A stretch of 64,000 nt of DNA from Phyllosticta citribraziliensis (GCF_038025025.1 NW_027117347.1:62001-126000); one strand, 5' to 3'; numbered from the stretch's first letter, positions 16,661 to 48,958 are shown. The notes: a model not told the origin generated them from the sequence alone. Translations and numbers: made by a program.

Positions 16661-16699
16661 AAAGTCTAAGGCTAACTACTTATCCTTATACGCCCTAAT

Positions 16700-18360: not shown

Positions 18361-18580
18361 AAGAATACTTTAGTATTATTAATATACCTAGTCTCTTTAA
18401 AAACCCTAGCCCTTATTATAGACTATTATTAAACCCCTAGCCTCTTTAAAAATTCCCCTCTATCTTAGTAGCCCTTATAAAGAACACTTTAGTATTATTA
18501 ATATACCTAGCCTTCTTAAGAACCTATAGCCCTTATTATAAACTCTTATTAATACCCTGCCTCTTTAAAAATCTATAGCC
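18361..18580. repeat. ~120-bp tandem duplication
   Basis: aagaa(t/c)actttagtattattaatatacctag at 18361 and 18480. Confidence 0.8.
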
Positions 18581-18599
18581 TATTAGTTTTAGTAATAGC

Positions 18600-21273: not shown

Positions 21274-21846
21274 TCAGGGTCGCGCCAATAAGCTCGAGGG
21301 AGCGAGCTCCAAGCGCGTAGCCATGAGTTCGGCTTCCAGACCGTTGATTGTCATGTATAAGCCTTCAATCTCGCCGTTCCTGTTGTTCAAGCGCCTCTTG
21401 AGGGTGGCCAACCTGGCCTGCTGGTCACTGAGCTGTTGCTTCTGGTCCTTGACCTGTTCCTTCAGGGCATCGTTCTTGCTTTGAAGCCTGGCCATGGCCT
21501 TGTAACCATCTGCAAACGTTAGCTTTGCAAGTAAGAGGGAGGGTAAACTTACCGCCGTAACCCCTGGTGCTCGGCTCAATCCTGGGAGCGCCGCTCAACG
21601 GATGCATGACGTTGCCTGGAAATGTCAGCTAGCCCTTGATCCAAGAGGTTCAACGTACGAGTGATCTTGTCGGGTCACGCGCCAACATGTCTGCTTCGCT
21701 TTGGTTGATGCCACCGTCTCTGGAAATGTCGTACCTTGGAATGCTATCGGATCGGTTTGGATGGAGCCCGCCAATTCGCTTGAGACCTCGAGACGCCATT
21801 GTGGGACGCGTTTATTGGTGTTGATGGTTGGCAGTTGTGAGGCCAT
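21274..21846 (-). pseudogene. Family B coiled-coil gene, un-RIPed and split by a stop or frameshift
   Basis: ORFs 21625..21846 (ATG) and 21274..21579 (heptad-rich). Homologous to the RIPed 2.2-2.9 kb copy. Confidence 0.6.
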
Positions 21847-28960: not shown

Positions 28961-29478
28961 AGGAGGCCGGGCTGGTCACTCTCGAAGAGTAATGTTTAGA
29001 AGCTTGTCATCAAGGACACTTACACCACGCACGGTGATTGAGGTCCATGGGAAAAGGCGCTAGAGAGCATGCAGACCGGCAGAGAGGAGCGGAGTGAGGA
29101 GGGCTGTAATAGAGACAGAGTCAGCAAAGAAGTCAAGTAGGTCGGGAGACATGGAGGACACGGACGAGAAGGTTGATTGGAATGCCTTGCCTGAGTGGAT
29201 GTTCGGAACACGGAGGGCCGAAGCCGGGAGGGCGCGACTTCCCTCTTGACTTCGGCACCGCGCCCAACGCACACTGACCTTGAACTTCTTCACCTCTTCC
29301 CCATCCCGACCGCGTTTCGTCCTGGTTCGCCCACTCCGTCGACTCCATACGCTTCGACTGACCGTTTGACACAGTCGACCACCTAGCTGTCTGCCTGCCT
29401 TCCTCTCTGCCTCTCTATCTATCCGACACGTAAGTACTGAGCTGCCTTACACTCGCAAGTTTGACTGACTATTTTAGA

Positions 29479-29754
29479 ATGCCACCTCGCGACTTTAGCA
29501 GATTTGGGGCCATCATGGCCAACAACGCCTCCATCAATGCGTTTATGGAAAAGCACCGGGCCCGTAAAGCCGAGAACGGCGGCAGCAGCAACATCGCCAC
29601 CACCAAAGATGGCGCCAATTGCGAAGGCGCCGGTAGCCAGCCCGCTGCCACCACCACTACCAGGGACGCAGTGGTCCAAACGGACAGCAGCGACAGCAAC
29701 ACCAGCAAGGCGGTGGAGACGAAGGATGCCGGGTTGCAGACCGAGGGCGCATAG
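29479..29754 (+). CDS. Family G small disordered protein (91 aa) with DAVVQTD / DAGLQTE motifs
   Basis: Open ATG-TAG frame. Preceded by a canonical 48-nt 5'UTR intron (gtaagt 29430 ... ctgac ... tttag 29477). Paralogs at 39.0-39.4 and 47.6-47.8 kb. Confidence 0.7.
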   Translation: MPPRDFSRFGAIMANNASINAFMEKHRARKAENGGSSNIATTKDGANCEGAGSQPAATTTTRDAVVQTDSSDSNTSKAVETKDAGLQTEGA

Positions 29755-29778
29755 GGAGCTAGATAATTAGTCATTCCA

Positions 29779-30725
29779 ATGGAGAGTATCACAGATGGCC
29801 GGACAACCTGAGAGAGCATGAGATCCGTGAAGGCGACCTCAATGACACCAAGAGAACCGAGCGGTCCACAACGGCTTTATCAAGTCCAGAATGAGGCAGT
29901 CACTCCTGTCTGATGCCGACTACGAGGTGCGCGTCACCGCGGTGATTCGAGCCCTTGAGGAAGGCGAGAAAAAATCACCGAGCTCCAGGGTCAAGTCAGC
30001 GCCTTGACGGCGGACTGCGCCACCTACAAGCAACGGGGCGACCATACAAGCAGCAGCGGAATTCATACAGGCAGCAGGCCAACCATGGTCAGGCGCAAGA
30101 TTCCAGGATCGTTCTCGAAGAGCAATGGGTTGAGGGCATGATTTTGTGGTCGGGGATACTCGCAACGCCGTGCCGCAACAATGGCCTCCAGGTTGTGCTC
30201 TGATGGCCAATACCCGCATCCGCGACCTTGTTGCCGGCCTGTCCAAAAAGTCCACGTCCAGTGAAGAAAGCGGCATCACTTGAAGAAGGCCTGGTTCGCG
30301 GCGCCACAGCCGCAGTCGCGCGGACTCAAGCCGCCCTGACGGCGACTGAATCAATGACCACCAGTGAAGTGGACATCAGGGCCGATACGCACCGTGTTCC
30401 TAGTGCTCCAGAAAAGAGCCCATTCCACCTCTCCGCCACATCGTCACCGGCTTGGCTGCGACGTCCACCGCCAACAAGCAAAAGGCGGCGAATGAGGAGG
30501 CCCAGGTGCGCAATGCCGCAGCCGCAATCGTCCGGACTCGAAGCACCCTGGCCCACCATCGACAGACGTCAGTGCCACTTCGAAGCATTTTTGGATGCTT
30601 CAGAAAGGAGCTTCGGTCCGCCAATCCAAGACATCGTGAACGGCTTGGTCGAAAAGTTCACCTCCGATGCGGAACAAGCTCCTGCGCACGAGAAGGTCCA
30701 GGTCGCGGTGCCGCAGCCGCCATAA
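29779..30725 (+). pseudogene. Degenerate coiled-coil gene, possibly family C-related
   Basis: Helical fragments (YEVRVTAVIRALEEGEK, KITELQGQVSALT, LMANTRIRDL) are broken by frameshifts and stops. Confidence 0.4.
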
Positions 30726-30860
30726 CGAGGACTCGCGCATCCCTGAACAAAGGCCTATCCGCAGCGTCAACGTGCGAGACCAAAGCATTCAAGAGAGGCC
30801 GTGGTGCCATCATCCACCTCGGACCATCTCTCAAGGCCCTGCGGACCTACCAGAGCAAGT

Positions 30861-31630
30861 TCACGCTTCTCTCGGCTTCGTACAAGACCAGCATCCGACG
30901 CCGCGACTGGTCGGTGACATGCTCGGGTACAAGAGATCACTTGGCGCTGGGCTGATGCAGTCCACGAAATTCAGCCTCTCCAGGCTCCGACTGGAACAGG
31001 AGTTGCTGCTTCTCTCGTAAAAGCAGTCAATGTCAGGACCGATAGGAGCCGCATGGCAGAAAGCCTCGCCGTGGGAGGCCACGCGACGCCAAAACTTCCA
31101 GTCACCGCGGTCACATTCTCCAGGCTTCCTGGGGATGACTCCGTAGAGAGTGACAGGGCTCCCGTCATTGGACGGAGTTTCGTCCACGCTCCACGAGCCA
31201 TCCAAGCCAGCAAGGGCAGAAAGCTGCTTGAGGGGTCCATCAGAAGGCTCCCACGTCGCTAGACTTTCACACACGACGTACCCCAGGTCATCTCGGTCCA
31301 AAGTCTGCCCAAAGATGGGGAAGCCGTGTCGCCACAACCATCTGCTGGACCAGGATTCTCCTCCCAGCTTCAGCGTGGGTTACAAGCTGCGAGAGCCCGC
31401 AGAGAGCTCCATGAGAATGTGGAAAGGGCCTCCAAGCGCGAGGTCATGAAATTTGAAGTACGCCAGCTGCCTCTGGTCCGCGATGTCTCTGGATCAAACA
31501 TCACAACTTTGGAGGCTTCGTCCCAGACGGGATTCTCATCCCAGTTAAAGCGTTGCGTCCAAGCGAGCAGATCCCGCCAAGAGCTTCAAAACGTCGTGGA
31601 GAGGGCCCCTCAGCGCCCCATCATGAGTCG
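30861..31630 (-). pseudogene. Family D-like orphan with 177-bp-period internal duplication at its 5' end
   Basis: ORF 30861..31337 has globular composition including EAFCHAA. ggattctc...tcatga is duplicated at 31353-31449 and 31530-31626. Confidence 0.4.
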
Positions 31631-32147
31631 CGTAGTGGTGTCGGCGCCTCTCATTCCAGATTCACTGCCAGGATCCACCATGACATCTGTTCAGCCACCG
31701 GCAAGGGGCTGTCGGAACACTGGCCACCTATCATGACCACGTCCCGAAAAGCGCCGCGACTGCGTCACAGCACTGGGACTCCCTTGGTCTGGATGCAGCA
31801 GTGAATGAATGCTCCCTAAGCGCGACTGCGGCGGATGAATGCTCCCTAGGTGCACTCACATTGTTCTCAAAGCTTCGACACCACTGGCACCGTCCATGGA
31901 CAGAAGCAAAGGGAGCTCCAAGGCGCAGGCCGTTGTGCCCGACACCCGGAGATATTCAGCGCCATAATTCAGTGACCTGCACTTCAACACCCGGTCAAGC
32001 CTTGCTCGACAGCGTCCCTTTCTGGCGACATTAATGCCAACACTGCCGAGACTTGTGAGAGTCCTGGCCGACACAAACACGAAGAGGTCATTCTCTGCTC
32101 GATGAGATCTTCCGTGGCTGGCATCTCTTGCTCCATTTCCTCAATGG

Positions 32148-32890
32148 TCATGGAATTGGACTCGATTCTTTGACGCCTGCCGAGTCGAGGGACCGCGTCT
32201 TCGGCCCGCTGGTTTGCGGCGAGAAACTGACCTTGGTTCTTCTCCCTTTCCCTTTCAATCTCGGCACCTGATGTAGGACATGCTGAACCGCTGCGATGTA
32301 ACCGAGTCCGACGCGGTTGACGAAGACTTCGCCCAGCCCTGCTGTGGCTTCCAACACTTGTCAGGACGCTGCTTGATCCCGTAGTTGGAGTCCGGCAAGC
32401 TCACCCTGCAGATTGCCTCGAGCAAATTCATCAGAAAATTCGATTGCCGGTGGGAAGGTGTTGAAGATGTGAAGGGAGTCTTCTCGAATTTAGATCTGTG
32501 CCGTGTATCTTCAGTACCCCTCATCCAGTTTGCGGCTTGGAAGTCGGCCGTCTTGGATGGGTTATTGGCGTTATCGACCTTTTTAGTATACTTAGCGTCG
32601 GTGAGGTACTGCTCGAGCAGTGCCGTAATGTGTTGCATGTCGTTCGGCGGTGGACCGAAACCATCTTGGACTTGAGTTTCTCAAATCAGGGTCTGTGTGG
32701 TCTGCGGTGCCGAGGCCACGAAGAACGATTTGGGCCGAGAAGAAGGCAAGGCTGGCTCGGGACCGAGCTCGAGAGAACAAACGAATCTCAAACACCTGGA
32801 TGCGGAGACTGACAGGATTAAACAGGAGATGGACGTGTTCTCCGGAGAATGATTCAGCCAGGCGCTTTACCGCAAACCAAGATGAAACCC
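32148..32890 (-). pseudogene. Family A copy, frameshifted
   Basis: DGFGPP..LLEQYLTDAKYT and QSNFLMNLLEAIC...WKPQQGW are in one frame. EVFVNRVGLGY continues in another (ORF 32148..32357). Confidence 0.75.
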
Positions 32891-32944
32891 GGGGATGCTC
32901 ATGGCAAATGGCATCCGGAGCTCGACAACTTGGACACGGAACGC

Positions 32945-33450
32945 AATGAGCACCGTTTCAGCAAAGGAGCGATGATCGACGAGCGGTCCACGATATGAGC
33001 AGGCCGAAGAGGACGTCGTCAAGCCATGAATCCAAAACTCGGCTTGGCCACGACCGAAATCGCGGAACAGGTGGATGTCGACATTCTTGACAGCAGCCTG
33101 AACAAGCTACGGGGGATCCTCATCAAGGGAAAGCGAAGGGAACGATGAGCTGTGTGAGAGGAATTCTGAAAAGAGCGCTGTCATATCCTACAGGACGGTA
33201 AGGAATCAGCCGGCCGCTGCAAAGACGCCACTGAGAAACAACACGCTCCAGGTGAGAACCAAAGGCTTGTGGAGGTCGACAAGCTGAAGCAGGAAAAGAA
33301 GGACTTGTCGGCCCTGGAGAAAGCCAACGGAGAGATTCGGGCCAAGATGCAGAGCTTGAAGAAGAGAAGGGACAGTCTAAAGCTCTCCAGCACCGTGTTG
33401 AAAGACTGGAAGGTGAAGCCACAGCACTCGCCGACAAAGCGGAGCTGGAC
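32945..33450 (+). pseudogene. Family C N-terminal homolog, frameshifted coiled coil
   Basis: 33035-33110 KLGLATTEIAEQVDVDILDSSLNKL resembles de-RIPed FTLQTKDITDRVSTDILESMVSKM (7420-7351, -). It is followed by EVDKLKQEKKDLSALEKANGEIRAKM. Confidence 0.55.
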
Positions 33451-35149
33451 GCCCCATGTCACGCTCCAGAGTGACAAGAGAGGCTTAGCATCAAGCCACT
33501 CCAGCTCCGGCGGGACGAATCTTCCAAGGAAGCGAAACGCATCCTGGGCAATGGCAAGACCTAGAGACATGGTGCCTTCATTCCCCATTTACCCAGATCC
33601 AAGACTCGCAAGGTTCTCTCGAGTGAGTGGGTCCAGACCAGTCTTGTGGACATGCTTGTGCAGTCGGAAATGCGCGGCATATTGCAGTCTCGCGCCTCCA
33701 AGGAGGGCGTTCATACAGCACTGCGCTGGTAGACGACATGCAGATATAGCCTGGAAAACCGATGAGCGTCTTGGGAGGTCGAAACCGCGCAAAACTTTGC
33801 AATCAAGGAAAGGCAATGTCTGCAGAGTCGACTGCTTGGCAGCAAATGGGAAATGGAGGGAGCTTTCGAGGCTGTCAAAACCATTGCCGACGTCCACGCA
33901 GATCGTTGAAAGGAGTTCGGGAGCCAGGCGTTAGCCGGCTGGATGGCGTCGACGTGGTCACCAGGCATGTTTTCCTGTGTGGCATAGTGCGAATCGGTCT
34001 GAGCTTTCTGTCTGGCGAGCTGTGGTCACGTCGGCGTCAGCCATTTGCGATCCGGCCTTTCATTGCGTCCGATATTGCGTCTCCCTGACGGGTGAATCTT
34101 CGAGAAGGATGCCCTGAAGAGTGTCGAATTGTCGGCAGAACATATACCAGCGGGACCGTCTTGCCAAATAGCGAAAATGTTCAATGTGTTTGTCCTGGAA
34201 ATTGACCTCACCCCCATCCTTAGCCCTCCCCTCCTCATCCACGGTCAAGGCACCTTTTCGAAAGAGCCAGGGCAAGTCTTTGCGACACAGTACGGGCCGA
34301 GCGACTGGATGTAGATGGCTACTCCATGAGGATCCTATTCCTCACCAGTCTCTCCCCTGAGATCCGTAATCTCGTCAACCACATGGATTCCCACTAAGAG
34401 GACCTCATGCATCATGCGGGATTCTTGTACGGGCGAGACCCCACTCTCACGAGTCCCACCAACGCCTCGCCATCGCCTGCACGTTCGGTTTCGGCGTTGA
34501 AGGCTCGGCCGCCAACACGAACACTGCGCCAGTATCCCGACCAAGGCGCCCCGACCAAGGGCGACAGGAAGACCCAGGGCATCCCCGACGCGTGCACTAG
34601 CAGCAAGAGGGGTCGTTCGACCCACACTCATTCTCGCACGAGGTCTCCCACTCAGTCGTCATCAGACAGCTCAGATTCAAACACTGTCCGCAGGGGAAGC
34701 GCCTTGGGTCGTGGCCACTAGGAGTCGCGGAAATACCGGGGGGAAAGGTCGCCAAGGAGACCAAGGCCAAGGGTGACAAACTCCCCAAAAACCCGGTGGA
34801 CGCAATCACCGAAACGCAAAAGGCCATCATTGCAGCCGACAAGGGCAGAGAAACGACCTTGGCAGAGACTCCGCCGAAACCGAGGAGTACCAGGCATGGC
34901 GGAGAACTGCAAGATGCCCGAGGAAGCGGCGAAAAGGACCATGCGCGAGCAGGGAATCCTTCTTCTGAACACGTCTGGCAGCAAGCCGCGCGATGTGGGC
35001 ATTTGCGTTCTGGAGAAGGACATCTCAAAGGGTAGCCGCTATGTGCAGGGTTGGGATTTACCTGCAAAGCCTGTGTTGAATTCAAGACCAACGGCTCTGC
35101 CTCTCTGGAAGGACGGAAGATCGACAACATTGACCACCCAGACCATTGG

Positions 35150-35540
35150 CTCTAATTCGCAGAATGGCAACGATTGATGGGCAGGCGCTTCCCTGCATGT
35201 TGCAAGTCCAAGAATGATTGGGCGTGGGTTTCTCGAATCAGCGTCTTTGTCGTGTATCTTCGGTATTTTCGTCCAGCTTGCGGCTCAGAAGGCCTCTGAT
35301 GCCGAGGCGGCCACGAAGGACGAGTTGGAGACAGATGAGAACGATTGGGCAGGAGAACAAGTTGGTCTCGCGGCAAGGCTGACCGAGACCGCGCTCAAAG
35401 CCATGAACGAGGACCTCGAGAGGACAAACGAGGCTCAAAGACCTGGATGCGGAGACCGAGAAGATCAATCAGGAGATGGACGTGTTCTCCGGAGAATGAT
35501 CAGCCAGGCGCTTTACCGCAAACCAAGATGTTGACGTCGT
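35150..35540 (-). pseudogene. Family A 5' fragment (recent paralog of 32.7-32.9 kb)
   Basis: caggagatggacgtgttctccggagaatgat(t)cagccaggcgctttaccgcaaaccaagatg is shared at 32823-32884 and 35470-35530. QIVLRGLG resembles QLVLRGRLG. Confidence 0.65.
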
Positions 35541-36282
35541 GAAAGACAACCGGGTTCTGAGCAAAGGCGGAGTGATTGTCCTGAATCATGTCAGGACACT
35601 GCTGCTTGGGCCGAGACTCTACTTGTGGCAGCGTCAAGGGAACTTCAGGGTTCGAAGATTCGTCAGTGTCGTGCGTGTAGGGTGGAGGGAGAGCTGTGGT
35701 CTTAATTTGTAGAACTCGCAAGTGAAGAACGGGTGGTTCGCACTAAATAAAGAAAAAGAAGAAAAGGGAAGACGCAAATAGTGAAGAAGGTCGTAAACCA
35801 AGAAGGAAAGAAGGCCACCAATGCTTTTCTGCCAAGGGATGGTGCTATGGTAGTGATGTTGGGAATGGTCGCGATTTGTAAAGCAGGCGTGGATGGTGGT
35901 AAATGTTGCACGAGCGTAAAAAAAAAGGGGAAAAGGAAAAGAGAAAAAAAAAGACAAGAACCAAAGGTGTCGAAGAAAGGGTCGGAGAGAGTGGAGATAA
36001 GGTCGTGAAGGTCGGTAATTATGGGGCGCGGTGGGCTGGCTCGAAGTCCAGGTTGGGACAGGATCTCCAACCGCCTTCGCCGGTGAACAGGGCAAGGAAT
36101 GCGGGGTGTGGTGGCGCCGTGCGAGGGGCACGGGCAGGGACCTTGGACAAGATCATGGTTCCTGGGAACCGAACGCAGACTTCTACGTCAAGGTTAGCCA
36201 AGCCATCCGCGTAGGGACTGGGGAGTGGGAGTGGGAGTGGCACGTACTGAGGATGTCGGCGAAAAAATTGTCTTCCTCCTCC

Positions 36283-36816
36283 TCATGGGCTGGCTCCAGG
36301 GCCGCCGTACGAGCATGCTTGGGCAGCGGCTCGTCGACAGGTTCGTCTGCCTTGCGCTTGCACCCTGCAAGTGTCAGCTACTCGTTCATAAGTGAAGGCG
36401 CTCTGGCATGACTCACTCTGCTTGCTGCGACATTGTCCTTCTGACCGGCTCTTTGCCACCAACTGCTTCATCGTCCACCCCTCTGCAGCGCACAGGGCGC
36501 CGACTTGGTCGTCCAAGTCCTTCTTTGTGAGAAACTGGGCGCCAGACCTGTGGTACGTGGCTCGACCAGGTGCCCGGACGCGAGCCAAGAGAGCGGCGCG
36601 GTGGCGCTGAACGTCACCGTCCAAGATCATGAGCTTTCGAATCGCTCCAAGGCACTCGACACTCAAGTCCCATATCTCCATTGGAGTTCCCCTCTTGTTC
36701 CGTGGCGCAATGGCCCGGTGGATGATCTGGGCGATGTCTTGGTCGCCTGCCTTGGCATTGATGAGCTCAAGGTGGCTAAGCTTCTCTGCCTTGGTGGAGT
36801 TTGGCCATGGTGCCAT
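36283..36816 (-). CDS. Hypothetical helical orphan protein (177 aa, MAPWPNSTKAEKL...)
   Basis: Uninterrupted ORF from ATG 36816 with a plausible pyrimidine-rich leader. No family recognised. Confidence 0.5.
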   Translation of the reverse strand: MAPWPNSTKAEKLSHLELINAKAGDQDIAQIIHRAIAPRNKRGTPMEIWDLSVECLGAIRKLMILDGDVQRHRAALLARVRAPGRATYHRSGAQFLTKKDLDDQVGALCAAEGWTMKQLVAKSRSEGQCRSKQSESCQSAFTYERVADTCRVQAQGRRTCRRAAAQACSYGGPGASP

Positions 36817-37041
36817 CTCGAACTTGCTTGGTGGTGAAGTTGGGATGGCGAGGCGTAGATGATGAGCAGGCCGGATGATGGACGTAAGAGGGCAGGACGA
36901 GGAGGGAAGGACGACAGTGGTTGTCTGAGGTAATGAAGGACTACTTCCTACGCGCAGCAAAGTGGTACATGAATGCTCCTTGAGCGCAGGCGTAGCAGCG
37001 AAGGAATGCTCCTCAAGGGTAGTCAACGAGAAAGACGATAC

Positions 37042-38150
37042 CTAACGCGCTCGAATCGGCTCATCGGTCGTCGGAGGTCCCGAGGACATGGAGGCCGACA
37101 TGTCAACGGAGACGCGGGCCGGGCCTCCTCCTTGGTACGCCGCCTTCGCGACCATGACCCTGGCTACTGGGAGCAGCTCGAGGGCACGGTCCCACTCCTT
37201 GATCCGGTCGTTGGCGTCAGCAAGCTCAGGCAAGTGCTTCGTGACGGCGTTGCGGTGGCACGAAGGCCCTTGGCACGCTCAACCATCAGGTCTGACGCTG
37301 GCTTGACCAGGGCTGAACCCTGCGCCTCCTGAATGTCCGCGAAGGACCAATTCTTGACGCCCGCCGTGATCAGCCGGTCGAGCTCCTCCCAGGTCATTTC
37401 GGACCTCGTTGACCTTGTCCGAGAAGGCGTTCTCCTTGTCACGTAGGCCTTGATGCCCATCGCAAACTTCTTCAGCGCCGACTGCTCTCGTCGCCGATGG
37501 TCTTGAGGCTGGCGCGGGCGTCCTTCCAAAACGATGGCGGCGTTGGCGCGCTCACGGTTGCCGTGAATCTGTCGGGCAATGGGCTCGTGGACTGAAAGCG
37601 GATCTCCATCAGGAGCGCCTCCACGTTCTCGGCCAGCTGGATCTCGTCCCAGTCCTTGATCTTTTCCTGGTCATCGGCGTTCTGCTGGTTGACCTCGGTG
37701 TTGTGCGCCGTGACCTCAGGCGACAACGCGTCGTACGCGAGCATGCTATCCTTCGGGCCGCAACTTGGTCATTGGTCAGGGACGCAATGTCATCATACGC
37801 GTCGTTCATCTCGCCGAACAGGTGGACGAGGCTCGGAACAATGACAGGTGTTCCGGGTCGGCCGCTGTCTTGGAGGATTGACCAGACTTGCCGCCAGTCA
37901 TGGTGGACTGCGTGAGCTTGTTGCGGTGGCAACGTCGTCGTAGGTCTCGCTAACTCGCCAAGGAAGAGAACGAGGTTGGGGAACAGCGAGAGGTGCTCGG
38001 GATCAGACTCTGTTCACGGGGATTGCGTAGACTCGCAGGCTGATTTCCAGCCGCTGGGACTGGGCGGGGTGGTACGTCGTCGTATGTGTCCTTCATCTCG
38101 CCAGAGGAGAACGAGGTTGGGGAACGGCGAGAGGTGCGGGATCAGACACC
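37042..38150 (-). pseudogene. Frameshifted paralog of the 39859-40612 gene, with a triplicated 5' module
   Basis: HLFGEMNDAYDDI, LAYDALSPEV and ADANDRIKEWDRALELLPVAR..AKAAY match RLFGEITDAYEDL, LAFNALTPEI and AIANERIQDEWRRALKLLPAAR..AKAAY. Related ~78-bp modules lie at ~37790, 37932 and 38074. Confidence 0.8.
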
Positions 38151-38199
38151 GTCCTCAGGGATCGATTGGGCTCGCCGCCGGACCTGAGACAGGAGCGGC

Positions 38200-38450
38200 T
38201 ACGGGCTGTGTATAGGTCGTGCAGCGTGTCCGGAATTCTGGAATGGCTGGTCCCAAAGGCATTTCGAAAGACGTGGACGACGAGCCTGGGCAGAAGCAAG
38301 AGCGGCAGGACGACGACCTGCTTGCTCAAAACTGCGTATACGCTTCTTTCGAAGAACACGCGGCTAGTTGGCTTCGACTGGTCGAGGAAACATCCAGTGC
38401 TGCGGATTGACGTGGGCCACAAGACCCTGGCAAACGCCCTTTGTTAGAGC
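38200..38450 (+). pseudogene. Family F fragment
   Basis: TAYTLLSKNTRLVGFDWSRKHPVLRIDVG shares a short motif with the RIPed 16.9 and 17.3 kb repeats. Confidence 0.3.
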
Positions 38451-39012
38451 AGCAAATCGCCGATTCTGATATCCCAGACTCATGGTACAGTGGTGCGGTA
38501 TGCGGGAATGGTGAATCGACTTGCGGAGGGTCGTTCCGATTGCGGTTGGGGCAGATGGACACCTGCTAGAGAAAAGTTAGCGAATTGGAATTGCTTGAGG
38601 CTTTCAGAGAAGAACAATCGAGCGCGTCTTGCCGGAAGGCTGGCGAAACAGGTGTTGGTGGAGGCGCTTGGCGCAGTATTCGCTGCGCATGACGGAGGGG
38701 CCCAGAACGACAGGAGACTTTGCGGCGGCGAGCGCGGTAAACAGAGGGCAGCGTGCGTCGCGTCGCGTCTGCTTGGTTGGAGTGGAAAGTAGCGAGATGA
38801 AGAAGGCGGAAGAGCCTCTGGTACGCGGTCATCATGCAGCCTCCCGCTGTTGTGCCTCCACTGAAATCCCCTTCAATCTCCATCCTCGATCTTTGCCCCA
38901 TCAACATGCGTGAGCGCCCGCCGGTACGAGCAGACGTCAATCCAAGCCGACGAGTGGTTTCAACAACGCGATTGTGTTCCAGTAAGCCATAACTCAGCAG
39001 ATTCTTCCATTC

Positions 39013-39424
39013 TTAGTTATCATTGCCATCAGCCTTCTTCTCCTCCTTCTCTCCTCCCTCTCCGTCTCCAACCACCGGGAATGATGGTGGGTCGGGGGAG
39101 GGCGACCCGGCCCGAGGTGCAGAGATGGGCGTGGTGGTGGTGTCCTCTGTCTGGACGGCTGCGTCCCTGGTTGTGATGGTGTTGTTGTTGTCATCTGTCT
39201 GGACCGCTGCGTCCTTGGTGCTGCTGCTGCCGGGTTGCGCGCCCGCGGCGGCTTGGATACGCATCCTTTCACTAGTAATGTGTTAGTACAATGATGGGTA
39301 GATGGTTTCATACTTACAAAATCTTCTCCATACTCGCTAATCTCTTTCGACTATCTCGCACCACGCGATCACCTAACTCTTGCCCAAGGCGCTGTTCTTC
39401 ATGAAACTCCGCGTAATCTAGCAT
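39013..39424 (-). CDS. Family G spliced gene, 121 aa, two DAAVQT[DE] motifs
   Basis: Exon 39424-39318, intron 39317-39272 (GTAAGT..CTAAC..TAG, 46 nt) and exon 39271-39013 join in frame: MLDYAEF...MEKIF|ERMRIQ...TKDAAVQTD...TRDAAVQTE. There is also an intron acceptor (GCTAAC..TAG) just before AATG. Confidence 0.8.
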
Positions 39425-39858
39425 TCTATTCACATGTTAGCATAGGTACTCTCAACGGCATGATACGGTGTGGTACGCGATGGATGCAAACTGCGGACGA
39501 TGCAGAAGCAGGGACAGCGGCAGTGAAAAGGCGGAGCGGAGGGCGCGGCGAGGCGGGCGAGAGGTCGTGGTGAAATGCGAGAGGGAAAAGAAAGGAATTC
39601 GTGCGGGGCGGTCCTCATTTGAAGGTTTCGCTTGTGCAGGTGGCGAGTGTCGTGAGGAAGGAGCACCCACCCACTTCCTCGGGAAGGTCAACCTCCGCCG
39701 TGACGACACGCACGGCTACACAAATGGTCGAGATGAATACTGGAGTACGCATCACGTCTGTTGAAAGGATTGAGGTTGATTCGATTGTCTCTGGCAGACT
39801 TGCCTGCTCGTACAAAACGTCCCCTCACTCGCTCATCCTGCCCCCTCACAGCTCCTCC

Positions 39859-40612
39859 TCATCCTGATGCTCCCGCCTTGGCTTCCTCGTACGCGGCCTT
39901 GGCCTCCTCAGCCCTGGCCGCTGGAAGCAGCTTGAGGGCGCGGCGCCACTCATCCTGGATGCGCTCATTGGCAATGGCAAGCTGGATCAAGTGGTTGGTC
40001 ATGGTGATGCGGTAGTCACGGAGGCTCTTAGCGCGCGCGGCCATCAACTCGGCGGCTGGCGAGTCGTCGGGCGCCTGGTTGGGCTCGCCAACGGAGACAT
40101 CTTCGTCATCGGCGGCGTAGGTCTTGATGTCAACGACAAACTTCTCAAAGACCTCGAGCTCCTCCTTCTTTGCATCAAGAAGGCGAGCAAAGGTTTCATT
40201 CCAGAGACTTATGGCGGCCAAGGCGCTGTCACGGTTGAGCAAGAGCTGGTGGGCAATGTGTGCCGTGTCCTGGAAGCGCGAATCCTTTTCCAGGAGCTCT
40301 GCAACGGTATCGACCATCTGGCCGCCGAGCCGTTCGACCTCTGAGACGTGCGCCTCGATTTCGGGCGTCAAGGCGTTGAAAGCAAGCTGGCTGTCGGTGC
40401 GGGCATTGTATTGGGCTTTGGACAAGTTGTTGAGATCCTCATACGCGTCGGTTATCTCTCCAAAGAGGCGAGCGATGTTGGAGCGCGAGAACCGGAATTG
40501 CTCGGGGTCGGACTGGTTGTCGGCCACCGGGGATTGCGCGGGGCTTTGATCAGCCACTTGCAGTCGTTAGTCCATGCTAAAGTTCATATAGTAGCATAAA
40601 GAAAGGCTTACT
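39859..40612 (-). CDS. Intact helical/coiled-coil orphan protein (232 aa), family C-domain member
   Basis: Long open frame lacking a 5' ATG. A 55-nt intron 40611-40557 (GTAAGC..CTAAC..AAG) would create A|TG. QYNAR..FNALTPEI resembles de-RIPed QYNVH..INNLIPEI (~4656-4596, -). Confidence 0.75.
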
Positions 40613-40799
40613 TGTTCTTGATGGTGGGTCGTAGAAGGCTGTCGGTGATGGATCTGAACAACACGAGGTTGAGAGTTGAGGGCCGGGCCGCCGTACGGAG
40701 ACAGTGGCGAGGAAAAAGGTTGCGCCGGTGACTGCTGAGGTGCAGGCAGGCCTCGCCGGTACTGCTAAACCAACAACTCAAGAATCGCCTGACCTCCAC

Positions 40800-41414
40800 T
40801 CCAAACACGAGCAGTCGAATTCATCATGAACCTGGTCGACGCCATCTGCAAGAAAGACTTTCCCGCCTGTCACATATCCCAGCATGTCGTCTTCTCTTGC
40901 TGGATGCCACAGCAGGGATGGGTGGCAGAGATGCTGATCAACCGACTGGGAATGGGTTACACCAGCAGCGGATACGGCTTTTCATACCATCCTGCCGGCC
41001 GCAGCAACGCCAGCGCTGCCGGCTACACCAGCATGGACTACGACAGGTGGGCTGGCATGGCCGAGTTATACACGCCGTTCATGGGTATGTTCATCCAGGT
41101 CCAGCTACATGAGCTAACACACGGTAGTACAAGGAGAGGAGCGCAAGAGTCTCCAGAAGGACGCCATTGCCAAATTCAGGACGGAGGTGCTCGACAAGAT
41201 GGAGGAGGAGTTGAAGGCGCGAGAAGAGGGCATTCGCCTGCGCGCTGAAGTCGACGAGGCAAAGGCTACGAAGGCGCGTTGGGCGCAGGGGGACAACCAG
41301 GCCATCAAAGAGGCGAATGAAGTGATCCGAGGGCGCCAACAAGAATCCTTTACTGAGGAAGCTTGCGGAAGCGGTGGCCAAGCACGGCGGAGGATTGGAC
41401 AAGGGCAATGCTGA
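40800..41414 (+). pseudogene. Family A copy, 5'-truncated, frameshift before the coiled-coil tail
   Basis: ORFs 40826..41248 and 41187..41414 carry conserved motifs shared with 1045-1325 and 32.2-32.5 kb. Confidence 0.7.
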
Positions 41415-44112
41415 AACCCAAGGTTGAGCCGGTCGGTCTGGAAGCCTGCCAGTAGGAAGCGCTCCGGCAGGATTTGGGTCCGGACGTGATGGAAGCTCGA
41501 TTTCCAGAGTCGAGGGCGAGTGTGTGGCTGAACGGCCCGGATTAAGGTCAGGCGTCTTCCACTGGTAGTCGACTTGGGCGTGATGTTGGGAGCTTTCCGC
41601 ACTCCACGCGTGGGCCAGACATCAACAAATGGACGAATCTTGACAAAATATCCAGACACGGCCAAGTCAAGTCCAAGCTTCGGTCCGTTCGGTCAAGGGG
41701 ACGAACAGGCGTCTCTCCCAGGATAGCCAAGCACTGTAACGAGGGAAGAAGTGGCAAGCATCGAGCAAGAGATGGTCTGCCTGTTGACCAGCGCGTCGCC
41801 GAGGTTTGGATATGCAGTGACGAGTCAAGACGACGCATCCAGCAACACGAGCATTCGTTGAACGAGACTTCCAGGGGCTTGCTCTTTGCGTGGGTCTTCA
41901 ATATCCGATTCGAGTCAGGGTGAAATACATTGACAGCGTCAAATGAAGCCTGCATTGCCAGCGAGGCTACGGTGCTGTGGTCGGGTAGTGGAGCTTTGCA
42001 TGCACGCAGCTCAGATGGTGCTGCGTCCTCAGTAGGGCGGTCCAACATCCGAGTTACGAACCGAGGACTAACTGGAAGAGGAAGTTTGCAGGGATAAGCT
42101 CAGGATCCACGTACCAACACGGACCAAACTCAAGGGACAGTCCTTGATGTACTCAGCCCTCCGAAAGAGTACAAGTACAACCACGACCATGCGGACGCAC
42201 AGGATGCATGCGTTTCCACCGCAATCTCCGTGGCAAGTCTTCAGTGGCTTGTAGACGGGCTTCCATATTGAATCTTGGCCACCCTCCACGGAAAAAACGG
42301 GTCCGCGTCGTGGCCGAGCAGAATTGTGTGCCCACGACAAGTCGGGTGTACGAGGAGCGATCACGCAATCGTCGACCACGATGCGCTGAAAAGTCTTCGA
42401 GCAACTGCGGCTGAATGTAGAGCTCCAGACGATATCGCCGTGCAACCGACGTTGCGCGATGGGAAGAAAGACGGGTCATGACCTCTAGGTGGCTGCACTG
42501 GACTGCCAGCCATGACGATGACAGACGTCTGGATGGCGGCAGGTGGAGGCCGGCCGGGTCGATCGTAAGGGCGCGGTTTTGAAAGGCTGCAGGACGACAA
42601 CGAAAGCTACATGTCAGAATTGCCAAATACCGAAGAGGCGGGGGACATTCTCTCCAGAAGCGGGCGCTTGTCATGCCAAGGCATGTCGAGGTGAGGGTAG
42701 CCGTGGAGGTAGGACAGACCTTGGCTGTGCATTAGTCGAGGTGTTGAGGGTCGTAGCGGTAGGACGGCGGGATTCTTTCTCAAGATTAAGATTCGGGTCA
42801 GACCTCGGTGGAATGCGTTTGAGACGCGCGGCGAGTTGACCAAGCTTGGGAAAGAGTGATTGTTTCCTGCCAGAGACAGCGCTGGCGTCTGGAGGTGGAT
42901 TTCGGCCCATACACCAGGGTACTGCATCTTCCAAATTGTCCGTGCCTGGCCCACCATTGCTTCTGTGCCATGCAAGAGGTCAAATGATGGTGATTCGGCC
43001 ACACGAGCTGAGCAATGCTCTCGTCCACACCCGAGTGCGCCGGCACCAGCCCACCCGTCCAGATGTCTACCAAGACCACGGCTCAACCCATCGGAAACAG
43101 CGTAGACCTCTTTCTCTGCGGCTCGGCGACAACCCCAAACAGCCAGCATCCCAGAATCCAGTATGTGAATCGAGACCACTCGTTCGACAGGGATACGTCA
43201 TCTCTTTTTCCAGACGGCAAGTCCAGTATGTGCATGGCCACTCGCTCGAGAGATCCGTCGTGCTCTTCTCAGGACGCAACCCTGACAGGCCAAGACGAGC
43301 CCTCAGACCAGCCCAATCCACCATCTTCAAAGAAGTTTCATTGTAGGGCTCGTTTCGTATGCTTCGATCGTCGGAGACGTAGCTGGCAGGTCACGTAAAG
43401 GGCGGGGTTTGTTCTTGGAGGAGGCGATTCATAGCTCTACATCACGAAAGGTCAGCACGACGGAAGTTTGAGAGGATCGGAATGGCGTACTGACCTCTGG
43501 TGGGCGGAGTAGCAAGGCGAGTTGAAACGCCATTCGGCCGAGACGGCCCGGGAGGGTCGGTCCGTCGGCCATTGACCGCGCACGGCAACCAATTCCACTC
43601 AACCCACACCGTTCAACACCAGTTTCCTTCTCAACAACGCGCGGTACAAGTCCAATCGTGTCCACTTCCTCGAAGACGAGAAAGAGGTGGCTTTGGGGCT
43701 GCACGACGCACCACCGGAAGACTTTTCGCAGGAGACCATCCGAGTATCCATGACGAGTAACGAAGCCCGACGCCTGCTTCGGCATTCGTAATGAGCCACG
43801 ACTACGACCGCGACCACGAATCCCCGTCATCCTGACCAGGCCCTCGCCTTCACCCATTTTGCGCTGCTAGAGCGTGGATTGGGTGTTGTGGTTCAATCCC
43901 TCAATTCCCAGAAATGATTCTGACTTCTACAGGGAATGCTCGAGCGACGACCCTGGCCAGTGTTCGAGATCCAACGGACCGATTTGCCACGCCGGCAATG
44001 TGAGAAAAAGGACAACCACGCGTCGAGTACAATACAATCCAATTCTGACCCTCGCGATACAAGGCCCCTCGCGTCGCTGCGCGACCTCGCGACAACCATC
44101 GCTGCACCGGAC

Positions 44113-46464
44113 TCAAGAATCCGGACACAAATCATAATTGCCCTCCAAATTATTCCCCCACCAGCTCGGCATGGGCCTCGAAGACCCCCCCGCACCCAAC
44201 ACGGCAAACGACAACAAAAACAAAACAAACAGGGCGGCGCCGTCCCACGCCCCGGTCACCAAGTACGAGTAGTCGCGGAAGATGCGCGGCTTGTAGTTGC
44301 GCAGGTAGTACTGCACGGTGAAGCCGGCCGTGACCTGGCTCAGCAGCACGCACGTCTGGCTGGCGTTGTACGGGATGTAGCCGGAAAAATTAATCAGGTG
44401 CGGCACGTTGAGTTCGCGGAGCATGCGGCCGGGGATGAAGTGGACGACCAGCCGGTGGAGGACGACCAAGCCGGCGCCGATGCCCAGGCCGATGGAGACG
44501 GCGGCATAGCGGGCGCCCACCTTGTAGAGGTAGTCGGCGAGGGCCCACGAGGCGGCGTTGGTGTTGTACGACTGAATGGTGGCGCCGCTCCAGGAAGAAT
44601 CGCCGTTGCCTTTGGCGAGCAGCTCCTTATTCCCGGTGACGATTGAATCCATGACGGCGTAGTTGATGAAGCCGCCCAGGATCGTGCCGTAAATCTGCGT
44701 CAGGAACATGACGCGAGGGGGAATTTTGACTGCTGGTCAGCAGGGATTTCAAGACGGGACGAAAACTTACGGTATTCTCCCAACTTCAGGTCGTTGCAGA
44801 GGTCGACGCAGCTGGAAATGACATTGTGCGACCAGGCGGCAAAGTACATGTTGCCGACGGGGCGGCCGGGAAGGATGAGACCGGCCATCATCTTGGACAA
44901 GTTGTTGGTGGCGATGCCGGTGCCGAAGCGCGAGTAGAGAATCGTACTGAAAGGAGCAATGAAGATTCCCAGCGCCAGCGACACGATGAAGCCGCCGGCG
45001 GAGAGGGTAATGTTTTCTTTGAGGACGACGACCAGGCCGAGGATGAAGCTGATCAGGAGGACCCCAACATACCACGTCCAATTGACTTCCTTGTAGTGCT
45101 TGGCCATGTGTTCGTGGTGGGGATCGTCGTAGGTGCCTTTCCTCGCTCTCTTGTATTGCCTGACAATGTCTCCGCCCCAAAAGAGGATGCAGTGGGCAAT
45201 CAGGGCGCCGATCGCAGCATTGGCCATCATCATGGAATATGCAAACGTTCCAGCCAACCTGGGCAGGCCGTGCTCGGCGAGAGCGTCCTTGTCGAGGATA
45301 CCTCCAACAAACACTTGAGTGGTGGGGTAGGCCGATCCATTGTCCGTTCGAAGACTGGTGGACATGAAGGGGAGATCTCGAGACCCCCAGACATTTCCCC
45401 AATAGATGCCGGCCATGGCACAGAAGCAGATGAGATACCCCAGAGCCCGGTGGACTTGCAACTTCAGCGGCAATGCGGTTGCATGAGAGGTTATGTACTG
45501 CCAGTCAAAAGACAAACTGAACAAGCCGAGACCTTCATTGTTGGAGGCACCGCCAAAGACTTGGGTCAAAGTCTCCCCAGTCGAACCAGTGGCCTTCATC
45601 GAGGCCAGACAAGGAATGGAAACCGAATTCAACCACGGCCAGACGTATGCCGGGAGCCATTCGTAGGCAAACATGCTTCCAAAGGCGTACCAAAAGTAGC
45701 GGAGCGGCTTCGAGTCCTTGAGATTGTCCCAGTGCAATCCCTGCAGCGTCTTGACCGTCGGCAGTGAACCCCAAAAGACGGCCTCGACGTGCCAGACGGC
45801 AATCGGGCGAATCAGGCCAGCCAGTCCGTATCCAAAGAGACCAATCGAGATGGTGGCGAGGATGACGGCGACAGCACCAACCGGCAGGTCGTAAAACAGC
45901 ATTTGTGCGGCAAAAACCTCAGAACTGGCAGCGGCTTCAGAGGCGGCCGTAGCAGTAATGGCGCAAATGGCGTGTTCCTTGAGACCCCAAGGTCCGGGAT
46001 TGAACGAGATGAGAGCCCGCAGCCAAAGAGGCTTTCCCTGACCACCTTGAGCCCTCCATCGCGCCTCGAAATGGTCACCGCGGGGAAGAAACGACGCCCA
46101 CGCCTTGCCGAGGAAGTAGGCGATGAGAACGATGAACGTGCCGGAAATGTCGGCGCTGGTCGGTTTGAACTACATCCGTCAGTGAGACATCCATGCATTC
46201 TTCAACACAGCATACCCTGTAGATTTGATACATGACAGCCTGGAAACAGCAGAGGATCGTGGCCAGAAACATGCTGCGAAAGGTTACGGCCGGGTCGAAA
46301 TCATCCCGCAGAGGCAGTAGTCGCCTGGCAGCGTCGGCACCAGTGATGATGATGGAATTGTCGCTGTCATCATCCTCCCTCTTTTCGCTGTCAATCGGGG
46401 ACACGTTAGCGTCAGCCGTCTTGACCTCCTGGTCTTGACTGGCGATGATCTCTTCAACCGCCAT
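44113..46464 (-). CDS. OPT-family oligopeptide transporter (multi-exon)
   Basis: Motifs RDDFDPAVTFRS, NPGPWGLKEHA, NEGLGLFSLSFDWQYI, DLKLGEY and YLVTGAWDG. Many TM helices. Short GT-AG introns near 46.2 and 44.75 kb. Confidence 0.93.
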
Positions 46465-47574
46465 GGTGAGGAACGAGCTGCTCAACTTGATGGGTGGCAA
46501 GGATCTTCATATCCATATGTAAAGATGCACACGTGCAAGATGCAAGATAACAATAAAAATTCGCAATCGCACGCCTTCATAGCCGAAGAGAAAAGTGGAC
46601 GACAACTTTATACCCTTGACTCGTCTAGGACTGAATGGAACAACTCCACGCCACCTCACGATTGCGCCGTCGGAAGTAACGCTGTAGGTAGACTTGTCCT
46701 TGACGAGATTGGCCCGAGCGATGGTGTGTTGCGGCACGAACAAGCTTGTTATCGGGCTCGGGGACTTCTCCAATGGGTAGACGTGTGGCCGGAGTTGTTC
46801 TGGGGTTGGTGGCCTGGACTGCGGCGTGATTGACCTGCAGCTCATGGTTGCAACAGTCTACAGCGTGAATATCCAGTGAACATCCAGTGAACATCAGCAA
46901 ACATCAAAACATCAGCAAACATCAGCGTCCAGGATCAAGGAGGTGTGGCGACGAGAGTGGGAGACGCGAGACCGAAGGACGTGCGTGCGGGGCTTGCGCT
47001 AAACTTTGCTGGGACTTTTGCCGCGGAGACCTTCAACACCACGACGACCGACGCTACGACAGACTTTGAAGCATGTCGCCATGTCGCGCACGTCTAAAGG
47101 GTTGGCTTGACATGAGGACGGGAAGAAATTGCTGTAAAAAGATGTCCACCAGAAGGAAACTCCTGGGCCAAGCCTCCACCCGCGCCAAGGGAACCAAGTC
47201 TGAAAGAGAAGCTTGATCATCATTCGGGAGATCTGGTTGGAGGACTGTCGAACAGCTCCACAGAGGAAGGGGCCCGGAGCTTGACTGCGAAGTGGATCAA
47301 TGCACACCTTTTGAAGCCGAGCGGAATCTCAAGTGGTCAAACACAAGACAAATGTCAGCCTTGCTTCATCATCTTCCGCCTCCAGCTCCTCAGTTGCACT
47401 CACCCTCCCGCGGTAGGCTTCTCTCCGGGCGACCTCTGGCGTTTTGAAGCGGACCTTTCCATGCAGCTCAACTTACCTACCAAACCAAGCACCTATTCAC
47501 CTGGTCAGCCAAACCATCTGCGTACCAAGGGATGCTCCGGCATGCGCGAGACTCGAGTGATTAATCTCGGTAGG

Positions 47575-47799
47575 ATGCCGCCGAGAACCCTCGGAGAGTG
47601 TTTGAATTCTGTGCTGTCGACAAGTGCACAATACGCGCTTACATGGAGAGGCAAAGGCCAACGAGGCGACCTCCAACAGCGCGGATGGCGCCGGCCGGTC
47701 ACAAGCTCGCCAGCCAAACAGGACAACCCCGAGAGCAGCGACACGAGCAGCAAGGCGAGAGAGATCAAGAACGCTGCGGTCCAGACTGAGGGAGAATAA
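47575..47799 (+). pseudogene. Family G copy, frameshifted
   Basis: MPPR start, TIRAYMERQR (cf. SINAFMEKHR) in a second frame, and an end SSDTSSKAREIKNAAVQTEGE* (cf. DSNTSKAVETKDAGLQTEGA*). The 3' flank is also similar to 29.75-29.81 kb. Confidence 0.75.
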
Positions 47800-47916
47800 G
47801 CAGCTAGGTAGTCAGTCCAATGAAGCGTCAGCCATCTGGAACAAGGCCGCAAGACTGTGACTGGTCTTCAATGTTCATGAACATCCCGGAAAAAGACTCA
47901 GACAACGCAACACCGT

Positions 47917-47982
47917 ACAAGAACACCGACAAGAACACCGACAAGAACACCGACAAGAACACCGACAAGAACACCGACAAGA
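47917..47982. repeat. Perfect 12-bp tandem repeat x5.5 (acaagaacaccg)
   Basis: Directly visible. Confidence 0.97.
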
Positions 47983-48295
47983 GAAAAAAATGCAGCAGTG
48001 GATGCTCCGACAATGTACGTTGCCACACAAGCAACAAAGGCTGCCATGTTGTGGAAGTGTATAATTTCCAGAATCTATGCTGTGGCTACCACAAAGGCGT
48101 GTTTGCTCCCAGAGGAGCTTGTAGCAGACCCTCGTTGAAGCAGGCAGACAATGTATGCATGCTGGCCAAGTCGATCATAGGCGCGCACCTTCGAGATTGA
48201 CGACCATCGATTTGTAGGCCGTCGGCAAGGCTTGTCTTCTTTCCCTGAGCTTTTGTCGTCTTTGGTCGATTTGGAAGGAAATCCGGTGTTCGTGC

Positions 48296-48958
48296 TCAAA
48301 GACTATCTCTGCTTGCTCCGAGGTCTTCCAAGGTCATCCACTCCATTCCTGGTGAAGCTTCCTTAGCCTGGTTGGCGAGCTCCCGCATGACGGCGGCATG
48401 AGCACCCATTGCGTTGATCTTTCGGAGAATGTCCTTGCGGGATTCACCAAACTTGGAAATGATCTCACCGGCTTCTTTCTCAAAGTCTGAGGCGGCTTCC
48501 TTGAGCTTCTTGAACTCCTTTGTATGCTCGAGAGACTGAGCTTGCGACTTGGCCGCCTCATCCATGATGCTGGCTTCCTTCTCGATGTAGGAGTCGGTCG
48601 TGTTGTCAAAGTCTATGGCCATCAAGAGCAGGTTCGTTCTGGCGAGCTCCATGTCGTAGATGAAATACTGGACGGCGGCTGCTAGCTTCTGCCACTCTCT
48701 GATGGTATTTCCCATCCTGTCGCTATATTCGCAGATGCTCCATTTGGTTGGCTCAGTAATGTCCGTCCTCGTTGACGGCACCATTTCCGAGGTACGAAAT
48801 GTTTCGATTTGCTCTTTGAAGAGTTGTTTGTAATCCGCGTAAGCCTGTACGACATGCTCGAGGACAGTATCGATTTTTTCGAACATGATGTCGTGCTGGG
48901 CGAGAATCTCACTGGCGCTGGGTGAATCTCCAGGTGGGTCACCCGGCTCAGATGCCAT
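48296..48958 (-). CDS. Intact coiled-coil orphan protein (220 aa)
   Basis: Open ATG-TGA frame with helical, E/K-rich composition. A probable GC-AG 5'UTR intron 49009-48959 (GCAAGT..CTAAC..CAG) abuts the ATG. Layout is like the 232-aa gene (S/P-rich start, then VxxAYxD). Confidence 0.75.
   Translation of the reverse strand: MASEPGDPPGDSPSASEILAQHDIMFEKIDTVLEHVVQAYADYKQLFKEQIETFRTSEMVPSTRTDITEPTKWSICEYSDRMGNTIREWQKLAAAVQYFIYDMELARTNLLLMAIDFDNTTDSYIEKEASIMDEAAKSQAQSLEHTKEFKKLKEAASDFEKEAGEIISKFGESRKDILRKINAMGAHAAVMRELANQAKEASPGMEWMTLEDLGASRDSL

Follow-up and report, generated by a model that had tools for sequence, protein, structure and literature searches.

Does a cluster of small open reading frames (ORFs) in the fungus Phyllosticta citribraziliensis encode docking sites for the dynein light chain LC8 (DYNLL, Dyn2, NudG)? 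The cluster lies in a stretch of 64,000 nucleotides (GCF_038025025.1 NW_027117347.1:62001-126000). This whole stretch is the window that was analysed, and all coordinates are positions in it. Three diverged paralogous ORFs, here called family G, together carry five motifs of the DAxxQT[DE] type. The original prediction had placed three ORFs and five motifs in this region and likened the motifs to LC8-binding sites. All of them are present, and the remainder of the sequence has diverged, with the other two copies 40% and 32% identical to copy 1. Scans with tblastn and regular expressions covered the whole window and find no fourth copy in it. That family G is a small orphan family with LC8 docking motifs has, in our judgement, an even chance of being correct.

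Copy 1 is a 91-residue ORF on the plus strand (29479-29754). It contains TRDAVVQTD (motif 1a, 29659-29685, plus strand) and TKDAGLQTE (motif 1b, 29719-29745, plus strand), whose glutamines are Q67 and Q87, 20 residues apart. Copy 2 is a gene on the minus strand (39424-39013) that encodes 121 residues and has one internal intron. Its coding exon 1 (39424-39318, minus strand) begins with the ATG at 39424 and holds 35 codons and two further bases. Its exon 2 (39271-39013, minus strand) contains both motifs, TKDAAVQTD (39219-39193, minus strand) and TRDAAVQTE (39171-39145, minus strand), followed by a 43-residue tail that is rich in proline, glycine, glutamate and lysine. The motif glutamines are Q25 and Q41 of exon 2 and are 16 residues apart. 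Copy 3 is a 74-residue ORF on the plus strand (47575-47799) with a single motif, IKNAAVQTE (47764-47790, plus strand). Tandem motifs had been proposed for the family as a whole. They are found in copies 1 and 2 but not in copy 3, where one motif is kept and the first site is eroded to TSSPAKQD. The 5' start of copy 3 (MPPR) and its 3' flank past the stop align with copy 1. Outside the motifs, the copies have in common a short AGxQP stretch and an N-terminal [FY]ME[KR] stretch. In general layout, about 35 N-terminal residues precede the C-terminal DA[AG][VL]QT[DE] motif or pair of motifs.

The family G proteins are short, polar and probably disordered. In copy 1, copy 2 exon 2 and copy 3, order-promoting residues make up 9-18% of the sequence and polar or small residues 81-89%. 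By charge and hydropathy, three of four segments fall on the disordered side and copy 1 falls on the boundary. Two other kinds of product were considered and dropped: a secreted effector (no copy has an N-terminal hydrophobic signal) and a kexin-processed repeat-peptide precursor (KR sites and a signal peptide are both absent).

The motif set did not arise by chance. When D-A-x-x-Q-T-[DE] is written as a degenerate DNA pattern and one mismatch is tolerated, there are five matches, compared with a mean of 0.12 in 100 shuffled sequences. Because none of the 100 shuffles reaches five matches, a chance origin is excluded. When the residues of the three proteins are shuffled instead, at least one relaxed motif appears in 189 of 100,000 trials. 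The stricter yeast Dyn2 consensus has three matches in the six-frame translation (127,996 residues), all of them in copies 1 and 2. Across the five 27-nucleotide motif copies, variation is found at 8 of 9 third codon positions and at 5 of the 18 first or second positions (p=0.004 by Fisher's test). The invariant A(-3), Q0 and T(+1) are encoded by three, two and four different codons, respectively. This concentration of variation on third codon positions points to constraint on the motif peptide, in this frame and on this strand. Selection on DNA, RNA or antisense ORFs does not fit the codon-position pattern.

The constrained peptide reads [KR]-[DN]-A-[AGV]-[VL]-Q-T-[DE]. The general LC8 motif is reported as [D/S]-4 K-3 X-2 [T/V/I]-1 Q0 [T/V]1 [D/E]2 (PMC3078936). 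The yeast Dyn2 sites of Nup159 and Pac11 are reported as charged-X-G/S-[V/L/I]-Q-T-D/E, with G, A or S at -2 in the yeast intermediate-chain sites (PMC3727929). The family G motifs fit both consensus forms: position -4 is D, position -2 is small, position -1 is V or L, and Q, T and D or E follow at 0, +1 and +2. The Q-T anchor is present in all five motifs, and position -1 is V in four and L in one. Flanks that favour LC8 binding have a hydrogen-bonding D or S at -4, a small residue at -2, a strand-breaking D, E or P at +2 and no proline ahead of the anchor. Four of five family G motifs have D at -4 (copy 3 has N), four of five have A or G at -2 (motif 1a has V) and all five have D or E at +2. 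No motif has a proline at positions -5 to -1.

The motifs were also compared, by hand count, with the 79 validated binder 8-mers and 32 non-binders listed in Table S4 of PMC6607443. Among the binders, Q at 0 is found in 74/79, T at +1 in 70/79 and D or E at +2 in 37/79. Upstream of the anchor, R or K at -5 is found in 17/79 binders, D at -4 in 31/79, G at -2 in 19/79, A at -2 in 7/79 and V at -1 in 6/79. In the copy 2 motifs, the residue at each position occurs among binders, and the closest binders are IDAATQTE, RDGSTQTE, KDSSTQTD, RCVSVQTD and RHQSVQTE. Judged by the metazoan data, motifs 1a, 1b and 3 are weaker; the yeast consensus does permit L at -1. The published thresholds of LC8Pred are an amino-acid score of at least 12.9 and a volume and polarity score of at least 0.1 (PMC6607443).

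The copy 2 motifs were also modelled in a complex with LC8. A conserved segment of LC8, written as a short degenerate pattern, was used to scan metagenome contigs, and the last exon of one fungal LC8 was then used as a query. The LC8 used is P0043, of 105 residues. The complex is composed of two LC8 copies (residues 18-105) and residues 1-55 of the copy 2 exon 2 product. The co-fold score is 0.70, with runs of 0.70, 0.72 and 0.66 that share at least 47% of contacts. When the partner is swapped for unrelated proteins the score is 0.31 or 0.22, and when LC8 is swapped it is 0.00. The tool's mark is reached by 51 of 78 solved complexes and by 2 of 108 mismatched pairs, in a calibration that differs from the present job. 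In the confident interface, partner residues 33-44 (ITTRDAAVQTED), the second motif of copy 2, lie against LC8 residues 75-86, the strand GRNFGSFVTHET. The other LC8 copy contributes residues 50-56, and Q41 touches its residues 51-52. This placement is the canonical groove pose known from solved complexes. The likeness to LC8 sites claimed in the original prediction is therefore upheld by the fit to two published consensus forms and by a co-fold score of 0.70 compared with 0.31 for the best control. In a published benchmark, AlphaFold-type scores are reported to tell LC8 binders apart from non-binders; false positives at a strict threshold amount to 8% and are described as mostly LC8-site lookalikes (PMC12057147). 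LC8 binding by at least the copy 2 product is about as probable as its opposite.

Among the three copies, the strongest case for a working gene is copy 2. The region from 21 to 44 kb is covered by contigs of two runs, X1 and X2, with canonical splice joints. The RNA nature of both runs is a guess, and copy 2 is not covered in X2. In X1, precisely 39426-39476 and 39272-39317 are missing from a 6,358-base contig; both have GT..AG ends on the minus strand, and copy 2 is for this reason read as a spliced transcript. The first is an intron in the 5' untranslated region (GTACCA...ATAG, 39426-39476, minus strand, joint 39425>39477). The second is the internal intron (GTAAGT...CTAAC...TAG, 39317-39272, minus strand, joint 39271>39318), and its removal leaves the frame intact (…MEKIF|ERMRIQ…). 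The gene structure that had been inferred for copy 2 matches this spliced transcript.

An intron-like segment ends one base 5' of the ATG in all three copies. In copy 1, the 5' intron (GTAAGT...TAG, 29430-29477, plus strand) is predicted from sequence and is used by the deposited model P0002. This model has 193 residues, and its C-terminal 91 residues are copy 1 (junction ...SDT|MPP). In copy 3, the 5' intron (GTACCA...GTAG, 47522-47573, plus strand) is predicted from sequence and alignment and has a position homologous to the 5' introns of copies 1 and 2. For the plus-strand introns predicted in copies 1 and 3, no joint is listed in the contigs, which weighs neither way.

A codon-usage score (per codon) was trained on the clear genes of the window, where the NDH2 gene scores 0.255. 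Copy 1 scores 0.216, with a GC content at third codon positions (GC3) of 0.77; this is the best of its six frames and is close to NDH2. Copy 2 exon 2 scores 0.067 (GC3 0.71), also the best of six frames. Because the codon signal of exon 1 is weak, translation may instead start within exon 2, at an in-frame ATG (39264), and both copy 2 motifs are included whichever start (39424 or 39264) is used. The last 32 codons of copy 3 score 0.043 (GC3 0.75), second to an antisense frame with 0.092, and its first 42 codons score -0.15, with no coding signal. The upstream extension of P0002 (28357-28617) scores -0.18 and likewise has no coding signal. Copy 1 is probably a working gene. Copy 3 looks partly decayed, with its last motif retained. 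We infer that the family G ORFs are translated.

If LC8 is bound, each motif would add as a beta-strand in one of the LC8 dimer's grooves and be anchored there by Q0 and T+1. A spacing of 16-20 residues between two motifs would allow two chains to be zipped by two stacked LC8 dimers, as in Nup159 and the dynein intermediate chain. Multivalent clients of this kind, which also include ASCIZ, carry at least two motifs per chain with short linkers between them and form a 2:2n duplex with LC8 dimers, often beside a self-association domain. The chains would then be held in register and their N-terminal segments brought together. The simplest cellular role would be LC8-driven dimerisation or competition for LC8, as an adaptor or a sponge. 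We infer both this ladder stoichiometry and this cellular role.

Several points weigh against LC8 docking, and the first of these concern the ORFs themselves. Exon 1 of copy 2 has a codon score of -0.22 and a GC3 of 0.46, which is no codon-usage signal. In copy 3, the predicted 5' intron is left unspliced in two contigs (X1 record 5 and X2 record 12). Compared with copy 1, this copy has a frameshift in its central part and may for this reason be in decay; the INAFMEKHR of copy 1 corresponds to IRAYMERQR in another frame of copy 3. Copy 1 is antisense to the sole spliced RNA seen at its locus. A minus-strand intron runs across it at 29419-29469 (joint 29418>29470; CT..AC, which is GT..AG on the minus strand), between contig pieces at 29279-29418 and 29470-31788. 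Because this is the only joint there, the RNA at copy 1 is read as antisense. As a separate observation, this minus-strand intron from the contigs nearly coincides with the predicted plus-strand intron at 29430-29477, so that the two form mirror introns within 29419-29477.

There is also no homologue beyond this genome among the proteins searched. An exhaustive search with a three-copy profile in 1.84 billion representative proteins returns only P0002, the window's own copy 1, and P0003. The latter is a 706-residue bacterial repeat protein that is matched in 10 low-complexity stretches and was rejected as spurious. A word-indexed search with copy 1 gives no match under a length filter of 50-160 residues, which excludes the 193-residue P0002. 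By exact look-up, the short form of copy 1, copy 3 and the copy 2 exon 2 ORF are absent from the protein collection. The ESM Atlas has no usable match for copy 1 or for P0001, a neighbouring orphan protein, and a word-indexed search with P0001 returns only itself. The 90% clusters of P0002, P0001 and P0124, a second neighbouring orphan, have one member each. The NDH2 protein, by contrast, clusters at 90% identity with proteins of P. citrichinensis and P. citricarpa. Small genes often go unannotated. On present data, at the protein level, family G and its neighbours appear to be restricted to one species. No such LC8-motif orphan family was found among the papers listed in literature searches on LC8, orphan genes and filamentous-fungal dynein light chain motifs (subscription-journal full texts fell outside the scope of this search).

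These results bear on a different explanation, in which family G consists of decaying relics or untranslated ORFs in a fast-evolving, pervasively transcribed orphan region and the motif is shared by descent, internal duplication or gene conversion. The near-absence of homologues, the absence of copies 2 and 3 from the protein collection, the frameshifted middle of copy 3 without coding signal and the opposite-strand joint over copy 1 are all in its favour. In copy 2, the motifs are identical at all but one of 20 bases, which fits a recent internal duplication, and no ORF tested at 21-44 kb has a Pfam family above the cut-off. Against this stand the excess of third-position variation and the four threonine codons at T+1, which are unexpected under neutral decay or conversion. 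In addition, the codon usage of copy 1 is as good as that of a housekeeping gene, copy 2 is spliced on its own strand and an intron ending one base before the ATG is the layout of all three copies. We consider decay unlikely.

The remaining points against LC8 docking concern the motif and its modelled partner. Position -3 is A in all five motifs, in place of the preferred K or R, and A is found there in 6/79 binders. N at -4, the copy 3 residue, is found in 6/79. V at -2 (motif 1a) and L at -1 (motif 1b) are each found in 0/79, and LQT is present in 1/32 non-binders. The VQT anchor itself belongs to a minority, 3/79 binders. Bulky hydrophobic residues at -2 are reported to disfavour LC8 binding, the 32 non-binders of Table S4 all contain the anchor, and the anchor by itself is described as no guarantee of binding (PMC6607443). 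For the modelling on the LC8 dimer that the original prediction had called for, the second motif of copy 2 is placed in the groove, but the LC8 is not the host's own. P0043 is from a Sordariomycete, another fungal class than the host; Dothideomycete LC8s are 84% identical to it overall, and their last exon is 98% identical to the query exon. The partner has a local confidence score (pLDDT) of 46-57, so its own fold is uncertain. The controls are unrelated proteins rather than motif mutants. Because many LC8-peptide complexes have been solved, the co-fold pass may reflect the model's memory of them.

In a rival reading the proteins exist and their motif is under constraint, yet for another partner or purpose, such as modification, degradation or beta-strand addition elsewhere; the resemblance to LC8 sites would then be a coincidence. 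Constraint on the peptide is silent on which partner imposes it. The metazoan optimum is not matched by A at -3 or V at -1, nor, in copy 1, by V at -2 or L at -1, and a co-fold may pass on likeness alone. On the other side, the invariant positions (D or N at -4, a small residue at -2, a branched hydrophobic residue at -1, Q0, T+1 and an acidic residue at +2) are those that define the yeast Dyn2 consensus. The co-fold chose the motif over other segments and placed it in the canonical register, and no other named motif was found to fit. A partner other than LC8 is improbable, and LC8 docking is the reading we prefer.

The genomic setting of family G is that of an orphan cluster beside an AT-rich block. 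The first 20,000 nucleotides of the window (1-20000) have a GC content of 0.29, a TpA/ApT ratio of 1.97 and a (CpA+TpG)/(ApC+GpT) ratio of 0.10. In the next 22 kb these ratios are 0.45 and 1.26. From about 22 kb onward the GC content is 54-60%, and the orphan cluster adjoins the AT-rich block. The ratios in the block are of the kind left by repeat-induced point mutation (RIP). Recognisable genes begin only at 44 kb. They include an OPT oligopeptide transporter (44113-46506, minus strand) and the NDH2-type oxidoreductase (59808-61061, plus strand), both identified by Pfam matches.

In the cluster itself, no Pfam family scores above the cut-off for any ORF tested at 21-44 kb (102 ORFs of at least 100 residues, together with those of 20 window proteins that lie there). 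No match at all is found for 101 of these 102 ORFs, and the other one (21277-21594, minus strand) has three coiled-coil-type matches, all below the cut-off. Of 20 window proteins, 17 have no family; OPT and NDH2 are matched, and an Integrin_B_tail match was rejected (18.2 bits, compared with a cut-off of 33.6).

Long coiled-coil proteins had been described as the neighbours of family G. The neighbours are instead short orphan helical proteins, of 220-232 residues and without a Pfam family. P0001 (232 residues, 39859-40612, minus strand) lies immediately upstream of copy 2. An intron at 40557-40611 splits its start codon (A|TG), and the joint 40556>40612 is present in both runs; the X1 contig with this joint is the one that lacks the copy 2 introns. 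A degenerate paralogue of P0001 is found at 37132-37833 (minus strand), in three pieces in different frames with tblastn identities of 58%, 29% and 44%. P0124 (220 residues, 48296-48958, minus strand) is convergent with copy 3. Its similarity to P0001 is at most weak (25% over 63 residues, E 0.001 in a single comparison), and neither protein contains an LC8-type motif. Just 3' of copy 3, at 47909-47982, there is a 12-bp perfect tandem repeat (AACACCGACAAG, 6.1 copies). It lies within an ORF (47820-48200, plus strand) in which it encodes (KNTD)n, and contigs of both runs break there.

Other features of the region are as follows. Seven minus-strand joints are present at 21000-44000: 29419-29469, 31789-31859, 36183-36247, 36364-36415, 39272-39317, 39426-39476 and 40557-40611. 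Pairs of small paralogues are found, 32629-32946 (plus strand) with 35339-35539 (plus strand) and 40793-41245 (plus strand) with 32258-32680 (minus strand). A short repeat with the core ATGAATGCTCC has two copies each at 31780-31860 and 36960-37020. It is probably a dispersed short repeat, because many contigs of both runs break there with loose ends and the summed depth jumps. A 41-bp tandem repeat (4.1 copies, 68% matches) lies in the orphan region at 23787-23954. Over the OPT transporter there may be antisense or unspliced RNA. An X2 contig (43650-45882) has a plus-strand GT..AG joint at 44000-44063 and then runs for 1.8 kb antisense to the OPT gene, and an X1 contig (44232-47946) has no joint.

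A more specific version of LC8 docking is that a family born recently in one Phyllosticta lineage, within an orphan-gene compartment next to RIP-degraded repeats, acquired tandem LC8 motifs and maintains these by selection, its members being free-standing small adaptors or sponges that could retune LC8 availability or act selfishly. This is doubtful. It is highly improbable that the cluster is selfish, in the manner of a spore killer or meiotic driver, and biases its inheritance through LC8, dynein, spindle-pole or nuclear-pore machinery. Its species-restricted orphan genes adjoin a 20-kb RIP-type AT-rich block and paralogous families lie inside it, but orphans are often found next to repeat-rich DNA in fungi. 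Nothing found here links the cluster to dynein, spindle poles or nuclear pores, or points to the biased transmission that had been suggested, Pfam finds no domain of any kind in the cluster, and LC8 clients are described as mostly unrelated to dynein transport (PMC6607443, PMC9500918). Some Phyllosticta species are reported as citrus pathogens and others as known only as endophytes (PMC9073689). For family G, a role in inheritance or in plant interaction is unsupported by the present results.

What distinguishes family G is the kind of protein in which the motifs are found. To our knowledge, almost all known LC8 clients are conserved proteins of animals, yeast or viruses, and we know of few from filamentous fungi. 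If binding holds, the family G proteins would be LC8 clients of an unusual sort, free-standing, small and species-restricted, and would add a filamentous-fungal client. They would show a young gene plugging into an old hub protein via a pair of linear motifs. If binding fails, family G is still a clean case of a constrained linear motif in orphan proteins.

Among known systems, the Dyn2 sites of the nucleoporin Nup159 and of Pac11, the dynein intermediate chain, are similar to family G. They are reported to be QT-anchored, with position -4 charged, position -2 small, V, L or I at -1 and D or E at +2, and to be arrayed a few residues apart in a disordered segment, where they zip two chains via stacked light-chain dimers (PMC3727929). 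Copies 1 and 2 likewise have two sites, 20 and 16 residues apart. Unlike family G, Nup159 and Pac11 are large, conserved and have other domains, whereas the family G proteins are orphans of 74-121 residues with nothing else recognisable. Binding is measured for Nup159 and Pac11 and modelled for family G.

Of the viral and metazoan clients in LC8Hub, FAM83D (IDAATQTE), the AMOT family ([KR]D[CSG]STQT[DE]), SON (RCVSVQTD) and MAST1 (RHQSVQTE) have the same eight-residue register. The best-matching of these sites share D at -4, Q0, T+1 and D or E at +2 with family G; FAM83D also shares A at -3 and -2, and SON and MAST1 share V at -1 (PMC6607443). The LC8Hub clients mostly have T at -1 (62/79) and prefer K or R at -3, whereas in family G position -3 is invariably A and position -1 is V or L. 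In the filamentous fungus Chaetomium thermophilum, the N-terminal RATQT of Naa50 is reported to be a site for LC8 (DLC1), restricted to its lineage and weakly conserved in relatives, and Naa50 is reported to bind LC8 in the absence of other dynein subunits (PMC9500918). It sets a precedent in fungi for an LC8 motif gained recently. In Naa50, a single motif has been added to a conserved enzyme and binding is confirmed by pull-out and yeast two-hybrid; in family G, the predicted sites are carried by proteins that are, as a whole, small orphans.

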